This document shows positions 1-4,075 of a stretch of DNA of 4,075 bases, one piece after another. Location of the stretch: the IMG/VR virus record IMGVR_UViG_2778261316_000010; one strand, written 5' to 3'. This stretch comes from a virus (lineage: Duplodnaviria; Heunggongvirae; Uroviricota; Caudoviricetes). Numbering within the stretch: the stretch's first letter is position 1; the number at the start of each line of letters is the position of its first letter. The notes under the pieces are model-generated. The model searched no databases and was not told the origin of the DNA. It worked only from the letters and a program-made list of their open reading frames with translations. The translations under genes were made by a program, and so were the position numbers.

Positions 1-45
1 ATAAAACCGGGTGATGCAAAAGTAGCCATTTGATTCACAAGGCCA

Positions 46-74
46 TTGACGCATCGCCCGGTTAGTTTTAACCT
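46..74 (+). promoter_or_regulatory. Candidate sigma70 promoter for thrW
   Basis: TTGACG at 46-51, 17-nt spacer, TAACCT at 69-74, about 40 nt upstream of the tRNA 5' end. The -10 match is weak and no TSS can be confirmed from sequence. Confidence 0.3.
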
Positions 75-114
75 TGTCCACCGTGATTCACGTTCGTGAA
101 CATGTCCTTTCAGG

Positions 115-190
115 GCCGATATAGCTCAGTTGGTAGAGCAGCGCATTCGTAATGCGAAGGTCGTAGGTTCGACTCCTATTATCGGCACCA
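115..190 (+). tRNA. thrW: tRNA-Thr (anticodon CGU)
   Basis: 76-nt sequence GCCGATATAGCTCAGTTGGTAGAGCAGCGCATTCGTAATGCGAAGGTCGTAGGTTCGACTCCTATTATCGGCACCA folds as a cloverleaf: acceptor GCCGATA/TATCGGC, D stem GCTC/GAGC, anticodon stem GCGCA/TGCGA with loop TTCGTAA (anticodon CGT), T stem GTAGG/CCTAT with TTCGACT loop, encoded CCA. It matches enterobacterial thrW as I recall it, the known attachment site of P22-type integrases. Confidence 0.95.
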
Positions 191-204
191 TTAAAATCAA
201 TAAG

Positions 205-1368
205 TTACACATCATTAGTACCTTCCTTATTTTTTGACTGGGACAAATTTGGGACCGATGGGTTCAGGATCGAGTCTATTTGCCGTGCGTGTTCGGTAAG
301 GTGATTAGGTGCGAGGTGAGCATATCGACGAACCATTTCGATAGACTCCCAGCCTCCCATTTCCTGTAACACTGACAACGGGACACCGGCTTGAACCAGC
401 CAACTTGCCCAGGTGTGTCTCAAGTCATGAAATCTGAAATCATCAATACCAGCTCGTCTCAGCGCCGCTTTCCAGGCTGTGTTTGCGTCATACCGCATCT
501 TCCTGACTGTTGGCGCTTTCGTTCCGTCTGGTTTGGTACAGCTTTCCTTGTACACAAATACCCAACGGTGATGATTCCCGATTTGTTTTTTCAATACGCG
601 ACATGCAGTATCATTCAGCGCAACGCCAATTGCGCGGTTTGATTTACTCTCTTCCGGGTTTATCCATGCCACCCGGCGCTGCATATCTATTTGTTGCCAT
701 TCAAGGTTGATGATGTTCGAGCGTCTTAAGCCTGTTGCCAGTGCAAATTCAACAACAGACTTTAATGGCTCCGGACATTCATCAATCAGCCTTTGTGCTT
801 CATGGGGCTCCAGCCAGCGGATCCGTTTATTCTTTGGTTGAGGCACTTTAATAATTGGTGCCTTATCCAGCATTTTCCATTCACGCTCTGCGGCTCTTAG
901 TAGGGCCTTTATAAATGAAAGATGCGTAGCCTTCGTTGCAACGGACGCTGGTTTTGGCGTGTATTCTGGAACAGGTTTCCCTTTTTTTCTGCATGCTTCT
1001 GCCCTGAGTTTCCAGTTTTCCTCATGACGCCGGTTCGTCATTTTCTGCATTGCTGAATAAATTTTTGATTCAGTGATGTCTCTTAGTTGCATCCCTGCGA
1101 AATGTTGAAGCCAGAATCCGATCCGGCTTTTGTCATCGTCCAGTGATTTCTTATGTGCTTTCTCTTCGAGCCACCTGACACACGCTTCCTCAAACGTCAT
1201 ATCAGGTATTTCACCAAGTTTGCTGACCCGCCATGCTTCAGCCTTTAGCTTGTCATGGAGCTCTGTCGCCTGCCTTTTGTCCTTTGTTCCAAGAGACTGT
1301 TTAAATCTTTTACCGTTCGGCAATGTGAAACTGGCGTACCATATTTCACTTCTGCGGAAGAGTGACAT
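205..1368 (-). CDS. int: Phage tyrosine integrase (site-specific recombinase), P22 Int-like
   Basis: 387-aa ORF starting [31 protein letters not shown], with GAGGAAA ribosome-binding site about 7 nt upstream of ATG 1368. C-terminal catalytic domain has the tyrosine-recombinase HxxR box ([10 protein letters not shown]) and the tyrosine nucleophile context (MVRRYAHL). It ends 15 nt from the tRNA 3' end, the classic tRNA-int arrangement. Resemblance to P22 Int is from memory. Confidence 0.95.
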
Positions 1369-1595
1369 TTTCTTTCCTCTGTTATGCCATCACCCGCGCT
1401 CACCTTGATAGTATGCAGCGGAGACTGAAGCGCCGCAATGCAGGCTTGTCGCGTTGTGAGGTAAGGAGATTTTGGTTTAGTGGGGTCTTTGCGTGTTGCC
1501 TGTAGGCGGCCTGTTCGTATCCAGTTGGTGGCGGTTGGTCTGGATATCTTAAGAAACTGACAGGCCTCATCGAGTGTGAGGCTGTATGATTCCAT
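1245..1595 (-). CDS. xis: Excisionase (Xis), P22 Xis-like
   Basis: 116-aa product from ATG 1595 ([31 protein letters not shown]...), preceded by GAGGT. It has an N-terminal HTH typical of excisionases and overlaps the int start by about 124 nt, as in lambda and P22. The ORF track's 126-aa version uses an upstream GTG without a convincing ribosome-binding site. Confidence 0.85.
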
Positions 1596-1845
1596 GGTTA
1601 CCTCTGCTTTTTGAACGCATGTCACGTAACTTCTTAATGTGTTCTGCCGTTTCGATCTCTTCTGCTATCCGATCTGCATCAGCTTTATTCACAGGTTCAA
1701 AGTCATGATTAAAGCGGAACATGCTGGCGATACATGTTCTGCCTTTTCGGATGTAGTGAACTTTGTTGTGGGTAGAACGCAGGATTTTGCAGGGAGTGCC
1801 GTGGTGGTCGACGTACCAGGTGTTAGGAAAAATGATTCTGAACAT
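1567..1845 (-). CDS. Hypothetical phage protein (92 aa), exo-xis region
   Basis: ATG at 1845 preceded by GAGGTG. It overlaps the xis start by 29 nt and is co-oriented with the operon. No family recognised from sequence. Confidence 0.65.
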   Translation of the reverse strand: MFRIIFPNTWYVDHHGTPCKILRSTHNKVHYIRKGRTCIASMFRFNHDFEPVNKADADRIAEEIETAEHIKKLRDMRSKSRGNHGIIQPHTR

Positions 1846-1892
1846 TTTTACACCTCAGTTGGACGATGTTGAAATTTGCTGCTTTGAGGCCA

Positions 1893-2111
1893 TCACAATC
1901 CCCATTGTTTGTTCTTAAGTTCGATCTCCTCCTGGCAACTTGCACAAGTCCGACAACCCTGAACGACCAGGCGTCTTCGTTCATCTATCGGATCGCCACA
2001 CTCACAACAATGAGTGGCAGATATAGCCTGGTGGTTCAGGCGGCGCATTTTTATTGCTGTGTTGCGCTGTAATTCTTCAATTTCTGATGCTGAATCAATG
2101 ATGTCTGCCAT
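1893..2111 (-). CDS. TraR/DksA-family C4 zinc-finger protein (lambda Orf73-like RNA-polymerase-binding regulator)
   Basis: 72-aa product with two CxxC pairs in the spacing of the TraR/DksA zinc ribbon (HCCECGDPIDERRRLVVQGCRTCASCQEEIE). Size and position in the leftward early operon match phage TraR homologues. Confidence 0.85.
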   Translation of the reverse strand: MADIIDSASEIEELQRNTAIKMRRLNHQAISATHCCECGDPIDERRRLVVQGCRTCASCQEEIELKNKQWGL

Positions 2112-2160
2112 CTTCCATTAATCCCTGAATTGTTGGTTAATACGCTTGAGGGTGAATGCG

Positions 2161-2189
2161 AATAATAAAAAAGGAGCCTGTAGCTCCCT
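2161..2189 (-). terminator. Probable Rho-independent terminator between orf71 and the TraR-like gene
   Basis: Minus strand reads AGGGAGC-TACAG-GCTCCT followed by TTTTTTATTATT: a GC-rich 5-7 bp stem, 5-nt loop and U-rich tract, 22 nt after the orf71 stop. Position is analogous to lambda tL terminators. Confidence 0.45.
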
Positions 2190-2209
2190 GATGATTTTGC
2201 TTTTCATGT

Positions 2210-2425
2210 TCATCGTTCCTTAAAGACGCCGTTTAACATGCCGATTGCCAGGCTTAAATGAGTCGGTGTGAATCCCATCAGCGTTACCGTTTCGCGGTGC
2301 TTCTTCAGTACGCTACGGCAAATGTCATCGACGTTTTTATCCGGAAACTGCTGTCTGGCTTTTTTGATTTCAGAATTAGCCTGACGGGCAATGCTGCGAA
2401 GGGCGTTTTCCTGCTGAGGTGTCAT
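2210..2425 (-). CDS. Hypothetical phage protein (71 aa)
   Basis: MTPQQENALRSIARQANSEIKKARQQFPDKNVDDICRSVLKKHRETVTLMGFTPTHLSLAIGMLNGVFKER. ATG at 2425 overlaps the TGA of the upstream 27-codon ORF (ATGA), suggesting translational coupling. The ORF track's 104-aa version needs a TTG start inside the methyltransferase gene and is not preferred. Confidence 0.6.
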   Translation of the reverse strand: MTPQQENALRSIARQANSEIKKARQQFPDKNVDDICRSVLKKHRETVTLMGFTPTHLSLAIGMLNGVFKER

Positions 2426-2505
2426 TGAACAAGTCCCATGTCGGCAAGCATAAGCACACAGAATATGAAGCCCGCTGCCAGAAAAATGCATTCCGTGGTT
2501 GTCAT
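2422..2505 (-). CDS. Candidate small hydrophobic peptide (27 aa), not in ORF track
   Basis: ATG at 2505-2503 overlaps the methyltransferase TGA stop (ATGA) and has GGGAGG 4 nt upstream. Product MTTTECIFLAAGFIFCVLMLADMGLVQ has a single hydrophobic helix-length core. Its TGA overlaps the orf71 ATG. Coding status is inferred from this coupling geometry only. Confidence 0.45.
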   Translation of the reverse strand: MTTTECIFLAAGFIFCVLMLADMGLVQ

Positions 2506-3059
2506 GCAGCCTCCCGACGGGCAAGAATCCTTGAGCCGAACGCCATCAACTCTCCACGATCAACGGTCGTAAAGTGGCAGTGTGTACGGGGGTATGGGTG
2601 CCAGATAATGAGCATCGAGCCTTTATTATTTCCACTGACGGGTTTCTCAGTGAGTGGGTTAATAAATGCCAGTCGTCCTGCCGTGATGAATCTGACCTCA
2701 CTGGCGGTTTGTATCGCTTCATGAAACCATCCGACAGATGTGTCAGCAGGCAATAACATTACACATCCCACACTACTGAATTTGTTTTCAGTGGCTGCCT
2801 TTTTCACAAAAGGGGAAATATTGCTGTATGGTGGATTCAACCAGACATAACCAGAGGCATATCCCATTGCTTCAGGCCATGAAGTGGTTAATGTGTTCTG
2901 CTCCTGTGAGATAAAAAGCCGACATAGTCGGTTTTTTTCGCTGGCGGCAGCATCAAGTTGAAAAACGAACTCTGCATTAAGCGCAGCAAAAATCTCTGGT
3001 GGTGTGCGCCAGCTGTCGCGATGTTCGGCAGGAGTATTGCTTCCGGTGAAATCAGTCAT
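2502..3059 (-). CDS. Phage-type DNA N6-adenine methyltransferase (Dam family, orphan)
   Basis: 185-aa product with the N-terminal WRTPPEIF...FVFQLDAAAS block and catalytic motif IV NPPY (GYVWLNPPYSNI), characteristic of the phage Dam N6-adenine methyltransferase family. GGGGG ribosome-binding site 4 nt before ATG 3059. No adjacent restriction endonuclease gene. Confidence 0.88.
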   Translation of the reverse strand: MTDFTGSNTPAEHRDSWRTPPEIFAALNAEFVFQLDAAASEKNRLCRLFISQEQNTLTTSWPEAMGYASGYVWLNPPYSNISPFVKKAATENKFSSVGCVMLLPADTSVGWFHEAIQTASEVRFITAGRLAFINPLTEKPVSGNNKGSMLIIWHPYPRTHCHFTTVDRGELMAFGSRILARREAA

Positions 3060-3213
3060 ACAGCCCCCGTTTATTATTTATCTCCTCAGCCAGCCGCTGT
3101 GCTTTCAGGGGATTTCGGATAACAGAAAGGCCGGGAAATACCCAGCCTCGCTTTGTAACGGAGTAGACGAAAGTGATCGTGCCTACCCGGATATTATCGT
3201 GAGGATGCTTCAT
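3052..3213 (-). CDS. Small phage protein (53 aa), lambda orf60a-like by position; not in ORF track
   Basis: ATG at 3213-3211 overlaps the exo TGA stop (ATGA) with GGGGAG 8 nt upstream. Product [53 protein letters not shown]. Its stop overlaps the methyltransferase start. In lambda the gene after exo (orf60a) overlaps the exo stop the same way; similarity is by position, not verified. Confidence 0.55.
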
Positions 3214-3488
3214 CGCCATTGCTCCCCAAATGCAAAACCAATTTCAGCTAGTGCCTCGTCCATTTTTTCGATGAACTCCGGCACCATCTCGTCAAAACTC
3301 GCCATGTACTTTTCATCCCGCTCAACCACGACATAATGCAGGCCTTCACGCTTCATACGCGGGTCATAGTTGGCAAAGTACCAGGCATCTTTTCGCGTCA
3401 CCCACATGCTGTACTGCACCTGGGCCATGTAAGCCGACTTTATGGCCTCGAAACCACCGAGCCGGAACTTCATGAAATCCCGGGAGGT
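3210..3488 (-). pseudogene. exo: Truncated exo (lambda Red-alpha exonuclease), C-terminal ~90 codons only
   Basis: Translation ...[92 protein letters not shown] is near-identical to the C-terminus of lambda Exo as I recall it. Upstream the frame has no start codon back to a stop at 3585-3587, similarity is lost, and the first ATG (3473) is preceded by CCTCCC rather than a Shine-Dalgarno. The N-terminal ~135 codons are absent. Confidence 0.85.
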
Positions 3489-3878
3489 ACTGTAATCGAC
3501 AGCTGGTCCAGTATGGTGTTTTTGAAGTTCAACGGGGCGAAATTTTCTGCCTCTGATTACCCTGTGCTGGCGAAAGTGTTTCCTTCACTGGTATTACCTG
3601 AAGCCCGCGGTGATTTCATTCGTATCTGGGATGACGGGCGAGGTGCCGATGGTGGTCGCGAATTATTAAGCTGGCAGGAAGCTACAAACTTTTCTCAGTT
3701 TGCCGGGAATATAGGCGGAGGTGCGGGACACACAATTAACTTTCATGATGGCATCGCCGGAAATCAGCCAGGATTTTCACGATTTAATTTCACCAGTAAC
3801 TCTGTGGGTGATGGTGTGAATTTTGTTGCTGTCAGACCGCGAAATATTGCATTTAACTTTCTTGTGAGGGCTAAATAA
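3489..3878 (+). pseudogene. C-terminal fragment of a phage side tail-fibre gene
   Basis: Plus-strand translation ...[55 protein letters not shown]... carries the tail-fibre collar signature (CNGA..S...YP.L ... LPD.RGRFIR.WD.G.G.D.GR...S.Q.DA). Only about 120-130 C-terminal codons are present and there is no credible start or ribosome-binding site; the ORF-track start at 3336 lies antisense to exo. Left boundary is approximate. Confidence 0.7.
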
Positions 3879-4000
3879 TGAAACCTGTTTTTGATGAAAA
3901 TGGGCTGGCTACAGTGCCGGGCGATATGCGTTGTTTTTATTATGATGCTGAAACATCTGAGTATACGGGCTGGTCTGATGAATATATTAATACTGGCGTA
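3878..4000 (+). pseudogene. Tail-fibre assembly gene, N-terminal 41 codons, interrupted by IS1
   Basis: ATG at 3878 overlaps the tail-fibre TAA (TAATG). MKPVFDENGLATVPGDMRCFYYDAETSEYTGWSDEYINTGV matches the N-terminal pattern of caudoviral tail-fibre assembly proteins (compare lambda Tfa ...IKIYNLLAGTNEFIGEG). The frame then runs into IS1 sequence at 4001. Confidence 0.65.
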
Positions 4001-4023
4001 GGTAATGACTCCAACTTATTGAT
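4001..4023. repeat. IS1 terminal inverted repeat (IRR)
   Basis: GGTAATGACTCCAACTTATTGAT, the canonical IS1 right inverted repeat as I recall it. The 9 bp before it (3992-4000, ACTGGCGTA) would be the target-site duplication if repeated at the other IS1 end. Confidence 0.85.
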
Positions 4024-4075
4024 AGTGTTTTATGTTCAGATAATGCCCGATGACTTTGTCATGCAGCTCCACCGA
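4016..4075 (-). CDS. insB: IS1 transposase InsB, C-terminal end (partial)
   Basis: Minus-strand translation of 4075-4019 gives SVELHDKVIGHYLNIKHYQ then TAA, the known C-terminus of IS1 InsB. The rest of the gene is outside the window. Confidence 0.85.
   Translation of the reverse strand, partial: SVELHDKVIGHYLNIKHYQ

Follow-up and report, generated by a model that had tools for sequence, protein, structure and literature searches.

The question raised by this locus is whether the copy of IS1 that cuts into a tail-fibre assembly gene (tfa) arrived by simple transposition, or whether it marks the edge of a deletion. The window, by which we mean the whole stretch of 4,075 nucleotides of prophage DNA analysed here, holds 75 bp of IS1 and a single, left copy of the putative target sequence ACTGGCGTA. 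We consider it very probable that a full-length IS1 of 768 bp entered tfa by transposition at codon 41/42, within a cryptic prophage remnant at thrW, and that it is a simple insertion and no deletion boundary.

Comparison of the window with uninterrupted tfa places the breakpoint at exactly 4000/4001. The uninterrupted gene reads ...ACTGGCGTA|AGTATGCC and the window ...ACTGGCGTA|GGTAATGAC; over a longer stretch, the former reads ...ACTGGCGTA AGTATGCCCGCC... and the latter ...ACTGGCGTA GGTAATGACTCC... As reference for the element we used the annotated IS1A of Escherichia coli K-12 MG1655 (NC_000913.3 19796-20563). Because IS1A lies on the minus strand in MG1655, the low-coordinate end that was matched is the insB-proximal right end (IRR). 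Window positions 4001-4075 are identical to this terminus at 75/75 bases, and a perfect match of this length is far too long to be due to chance. Moreover, read on the minus strand, 4016-4075 supplies the final 19 codons of InsB together with its stop (SVELHDKVIGHYLNIKHYQ*, stop codon at 4016-4018). The 75/75 match and the InsB C-terminus on the minus strand therefore identify the end that abuts tfa as the right end of IS1. Its first 75 of 768 bp occupy 4001..4075 on the minus strand, starting at 4001 with the imperfect terminal inverted repeat GGTAATGACTCCAACTTATTGAT..., and the transposase genes are oriented opposite to tfa. The first-pass annotation had tfa cut after codon 41 by the IS1 right end at 4001; its coordinates, codon count and end assignment all agree with the uninterrupted gene, the IS1A match and the InsB C-terminus.

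The tfa frame opens with the ATG at 3878 and comprises 123 nt (41 codons) up to 4000. This ATG overlaps the stop codon of the upstream tail-fibre fragment (TAATG; TAA at 3876-3878). Intact 197-aa Tfa proteins, for example WP_000805547.1 of strain 2013C-4974 (L003), begin with exactly these 41 residues; in many E. coli prophages such proteins are encoded after this same 3′ end of the tail-fibre gene. The plus-strand fragment at 3878..4000 is thus codons 1-41 of 197 by its identity to WP_000805547.1, and RefSeq labels the corresponding part of the sister genome described below 'tail fiber assembly protein, missing C-terminus'. As for members of the Caudo_TAP family, the gene lies directly downstream of a tail-fibre gene, and intact prophages show the same arrangement. 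The 41-aa fragment alone gave no Pfam match. Its frame continues for 26 codons into IS1, giving a predicted product of 67 aa with a TGA stop 4-6 nt past the window end, and a 67-aa gene is called here in one contig (L012). Such a Tfa-IS1 product would be without the whole Caudo_TAP chaperone domain (residues 77-196).

The far side of the insertion can be read in a sister genome. Among 5,426 complete RefSeq E. coli genomes a single one covers the whole window, namely NZ_CM194533.1 (L001), which is identical to it at 4075/4076 positions. The first-pass annotation had proposed to find the other IS1 end and to look for a 9-bp duplication of ACTGGCGTA, the lack of which would make the IS1 a deletion boundary. 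In L001 both are in place. IS1 occupies 6603-7370, a length of 768 bp, and its ends read GGTAATGACTCC... and ...GGCAGCATCACC, the latter being the left end (IRL); 18 of the outer 23 positions match between IRL and IRR. The 9-mer, which is single-copy in uninterrupted tfa, flanks the element at 6594-6602 and 7371-7379, a spacing of 777 (768 + 9), and its presence on both sides of IS1 in L001 identifies window 3992..4000 as the left copy of a target-site duplication. Directly after the duplication the rest of tfa resumes at 7380-7850, labelled 'missing N-terminus' in RefSeq. When IS1 and one repeat copy are removed from L001, an ORF of 197 aa is restored that is identical to WP_000805547.1 at 191/197 residues and matches Pfam Caudo_TAP (PF02413) over residues 77-196 (92.4 bits against a cutoff of 22.1; E = 3.3e-26). 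For L001, the duplication and the adjoining rest of tfa refute a deletion boundary at IS1, and the same far side would be expected, from L001, in the window's own genome.

The element itself is unremarkable. IS1 has been described as 768 bp long, with imperfect terminal inverted repeats and target duplications of 8 or 9 bp (PMC12428005), and the length, inverted repeats and duplication found in L001 agree with this description. Its assignment to IS1 thus draws on the IRR sequence in the window and on the 768-bp length, the imperfect IRL and the 9-bp duplication in L001. RefSeq annotates the L001 copy as 'IS1 family transposase, programmed frameshift' (WP_250112393.1) and not as a pseudogene. 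Together with the InsB C-terminus in the window, this annotation is consistent with the production of InsAB' from insA and insB by a -1 programmed frameshift.

The L001 copy differs from K-12 IS1A at 24/768 positions (96.9% identity), and 22 of these differences fall together in the 3′ half of insB, at 91-283 nt from IRR. This clustering suggests a mosaic or a variant IS1 isoform. The 75 bp in the window do not suffice to tell the isoform. The lone difference between L001 and the window is an extra T in L001 (6209), at window position 3600, which leaves the tail-fibre remnant of L001 frameshifted. Here the window agrees with intact tail-fibre genes and carries the ancestral reading; the extra T may be a homopolymer sequencing error.

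The window has a record of its own, in which window 1-4075 corresponds with 100% identity to positions 2489-6563 of a draft contig (L005; NMEQ01000068.1, GCA_002542525.1). This contig ends 2 bases past the window, 77 bp into IS1 and short of its other end. In the window's own genome, then, IS1 might be the boundary of a rearrangement or deletion, where an adjacent deletion or recombination between two IS1 copies removed or moved the 3′ part of tfa and no duplication is present. Both the window and L005 end inside IS1 with the far side unseen, IS1 is multi-copy in this lineage (at least 40 pieces in L001), and in other strains this cassette has been rearranged in association with IS elements. 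We nevertheless regard this as very improbable, given that L001, different at one base in 4076, has an intact duplication with the rest of tfa right after IS1, and given that a contig break at a repeat is expected from short-read assembly anyway.

A complete IS1 simply inserted into tfa would be one lesion in a prophage that carries a much larger one. The window begins in the proA-thrW intergenic region, and the prophage attachment site, the tRNA-Thr(CGU) gene thrW, lies at 115..190 on the plus strand (ARAGORN and Rfam); an Rfam search over the window found this tRNA and nothing else. Window positions 145-200, which comprise the 3′ part of thrW and 10 further nt, are repeated exactly at L001 12138-12193. 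This 56-bp direct repeat represents attL and attR of a remnant of ~9.4 kb. In L001, attR is followed by CP4-6-type genes (ykfI), and thrW is thus occupied by tandem elements. The left end of the remnant is occupied by a tyrosine integrase gene on the minus strand (205..1368; Pfam Phage_integrase, 5.3e-48; also annotated by RefSeq in L001). Its longest ORF, of 387 aa with an ATG at 1368, overlaps the upstream small HTH/xis-like ORF (1245-1625, minus strand) by ~120 nt; the RefSeq integrase is shorter (372 aa) and still overlaps that ORF by 79 nt. Several small early genes, seen as minus-strand ORFs, lie between the xis-like gene and that for a phage Dam methyltransferase (2502-3059, minus strand), which is intact at 185 aa in the window. 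In two metagenome contigs Dam is split into ORFs of 85 and 84 aa (L006 3460-4016 and L007 3399-3955, equivalent to window 2502-3059).

Next comes a 3′ remnant of exo, the lambda-type exonuclease gene, on the minus strand at 3210..3489, recognised by a YqaJ match and labelled 'exonuclease, missing N-terminus' in RefSeq; its reading frame in the window spans 3210-3473, and homology extends on to 3489. It adjoins a plus-strand 3′ remnant of a tail-fibre gene (3488..3880), identified by homology, which consists of ~130 codons of the variable C-terminal part. Many E. coli prophages have 'phage tail protein' genes whose 3′ ends show 99.4% identity to this remnant from 3488 onwards; identity to the phage 500465-2 tail protein is 98.4%, and there is a weak match to Phage Tail Collar. 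The exo homology ends at 3489 and the tail-fibre homology starts at 3488, and hence the deletion junction (CCGGGAGGTACTGTAATCGACAGC) lies at 3488/3489 with a 2-bp TA overlap. The deletion has fused the 3′ ends of exo and of the tail-fibre gene head-to-head. Intact thrW relatives (~36 kb) match window 1-3489 only and then diverge, continuing with exo, bet, gam and the immunity, replication, lysis, head and tail genes, all of which are absent from the window. The loss of ~30 kb, from exo to the last ~130 tail-fibre codons, is the main inactivating lesion of this prophage, and a 2-bp TA overlap is typical of illegitimate recombination. We rejected IS1 as the agent of the deletion, since 512 bp separate the junction from the IS1 end and the overlap at the junction is just the 2-bp TA. 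Pin was rejected likewise, since in intact relatives the crossover site is 52 bp upstream of the junction. No example of the exo/tail-fibre deletion with an uninterrupted tfa was found: L001 is the sole carrier of the junction among the 5,426 complete genomes, and the draft contigs with it all contain IS1 or end before IS1.

To the right of the interrupted tfa, L001 contains an inverted tfa, an inverted alternative tail-fibre C-terminus, pinE, a GIY-YIG gene and a gene for an AraC-type regulator. The serine invertase gene pinE (L001 8690-9244), which lies outside the window, is annotated as intact, and a crossover site, TTCTCCTAAACCAACGTTTATGAAAA, is found next to it at L001 8609-8634. The tfa gene was thus once part of a tail-fibre cassette invertible by Pin. 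The left crossover site is present in L003 at 3922-3947 (TTCTCGCATACCTTGGTTTGGGAGAA), 52 bp upstream of where homology to the window starts. Because this places it 52 bp upstream of the deletion junction, it has been lost from the remnant, and a search of L001 found no second crossover site at up to 3 mismatches. Of the two hallmarks of a Pin/Gin-type segment, the adjacent serine invertase is there and the pair of inverted ~26-bp sites is not. Deletion of the left site leaves the cassette frozen and pinE an orphan invertase. Independent IS1 copies are seen in the same cassette in strains GF66.2 (L002 5124-5821), in the inverted tfa copy, and N9 (L016 3119-3816), in the variable part of the tail-fibre gene; in N9, ISKpn26 also adjoins the cassette.

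We also looked for both junctions in other assemblies. An exact-protein look-up with the 121-aa tail-fibre remnant, counted from an internal Met, returned 24 contigs, ten of which were listed; the 180-aa ORF that spans the deletion junction was absent from the records covered by such a look-up. Among the ten listed of the 24, at least seven contigs (L005-L009, L011 and L012) carry the identical tfa/IS1 junction, and every one of them ends inside IS1, 27-139 bp in. L010 ends 2 bp past the breakpoint, L014 exactly on it (0 bp) and L013 earlier, within tfa. Since short-read assemblies break in multi-copy IS1, contigs stop at the element, as the window does at 4075. The junction-bearing assemblies come from different sources, comprising an NCBI draft genome, ENA metagenomes and Logan, and the occurrence of the same junction in independent samples shows that it is real. 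Exact-pattern scans for the tfa/IS1 and exo/tail-fibre junctions found neither in GTDB species-representative genomes or JGI metagenome contigs.

Two of these contigs, L010 (ERZ773514) and L013 (ERZ28656495), align to window 3057-4002 and share the exo/tail-fibre junction. The 15 differences between L010 and the window all fall at 3062-3399; from 3400 until the contig ends at 4002 the two agree at every base. Both have a different integrase/excisionase module (lambda-type, Arm-DNA-bind), and a DUF1382 gene replaces Dam. This variation suggests recombination among lambdoid prophages or chimeric metagenome assembly. As the exo/tail-fibre junction occurs with differing integrase-proximal modules in L010 and L013, and as L010 breaks 2 bp past the tfa breakpoint, where further carriers have IS1, one might suppose that the IS1-bearing remnant is an old and stably kept unit, passed between E. 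coli lineages or re-assorted through recombination of resident lambdoid prophages. We think this very improbable; if true, it could hint at selection on some part of the remnant, such as the orphan pinE, the GIY-YIG gene or the read-through peptide of 67 aa from Tfa and IS1.

It is scarcely conceivable that assembly created the tfa/IS1 junction by mis-joining repeat reads into a chimeric contig end. The junction does sit at the very end of a draft contig, where mis-joins are commonest, but it is identical in seven further independent assemblies (NCBI draft, ENA metagenomes, Logan), and the complete chromosome of L001 resolves both IS1 ends and the duplication. Nor is there any real likelihood that the element is a solo IS1 end or truncated fragment, as the 75 bp visible in the window would allow, since IS1 continues beyond the equivalent of 4075, reaching a length of 139 bp in L012 (with no difference from the window in the 75 bp that both contain) and the full 768 bp, with an annotated non-pseudogene transposase, in L001.

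The simple insertion of a complete IS1 into tfa would have proceeded as follows, with the chemistry taken from established IS1 biology. The InsAB' transposase would bind both terminal inverted repeats and the target would be cut with a stagger of 9 bp, such that gap repair would duplicate ACTGGCGTA on both sides of the element. With IRR facing the start of tfa, insA and insB are transcribed opposite to it, and on the far side IRL would be followed by ACTGGCGTAAGTATGCC. Tfa is cut after residue 41, with a predicted extension by 26 IS1-encoded residues before a stop. Independently, the prophage has lost ~30 kb, and the same deletion has taken the left Pin crossover site.

The first-pass annotation held that the insertion further inactivates the prophage. 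Formally this is so, but there would be no functional change in an element that has lost ~30 kb, from exo to the tail-fibre 3′ end. Because the prophage is defunct through that loss, IS1 is without consequence for phage production, and its insertion is presumably neutral. The abundance of IS1, which had been called typical of Shigella and some E. coli lineages, fits L001 (at least 40 pieces against a median of 10 places per genome); this genome is an E. coli, and nothing shows it to be a Shigella. We found no evidence for a Shigella origin of the window, the matching records being E. coli in a collection that was searched without Shigella genomes.

This is a textbook IS1 insertion and thus ordinary, known biology. 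RefSeq already annotates the pieces, as a two-part tfa pseudogene and an IS1 transposase, and one more IS1 copy in decayed prophage DNA carries little biological weight. The tfa::IS1 and exo/tail-fibre junctions together form a rare and specific lineage marker, present in 1/5,426 complete E. coli genomes and recurring in several gut or environmental metagenome assemblies. Moreover, the locus illustrates why draft contigs end at IS1, and the intact target duplication indicates that this copy has so far driven no adjacent deletion or inversion.

Lastly, we compared the locus with known systems. IS1A of K-12 shares the terminal 75 bp and the InsB C-terminus with the window, and with L001 the 768-bp length, IRL/IRR, insA/insB with their -1 frameshift and a 9-bp duplication, whereas its sequence departs from the L001 copy at the 24 of 768 positions noted above. 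The Caudo_TAP chaperones (lambda Tfa, Mu U, P2 G and e14 TfaE) have the same tail-fibre-adjacent position, the overlapping stop and start codons and the domain that is present in the rejoined 197 aa. The rejoined Tfa shares 97% identity with its counterparts in P2-like and SfV/e14-like E. coli prophages, and its gene is ~98% identical at the DNA level to that of phage 500465-2. In contrast to those genes, codons 1-41 here lie upstream of IS1, the domain is set 777 bp apart and the partner tail-fibre gene is a 3′ stump. The closest counterparts of the left part are the SfV/e14-like thrW prophages (~36 kb; E. coli ST69, NZ_CP102488.1), in which the equivalent of window 1-3489 (thrW, int, the xis-like gene, Dam and the exo 3′ end) is 99.9% identical. 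Unlike the ST69 prophage, the window element has lost all the DNA that reaches from the 5′ part of exo into the 3′ part of the tail-fibre gene. The ST69 prophage, for its part, terminates in another tail-fibre/tfa pair plus an acyltransferase gene in place of a pin cassette. The right part resembles the Pin, Gin and Cin cassettes (the e14 P region, the Mu G segment and the P1 C segment), whose canonical layout L001 retains, with a variable part and tfa, an inverted tfa and variable part, and pinE. It differs from them in that the left site is gone, the segment is frozen and an IS1 sits inside it.
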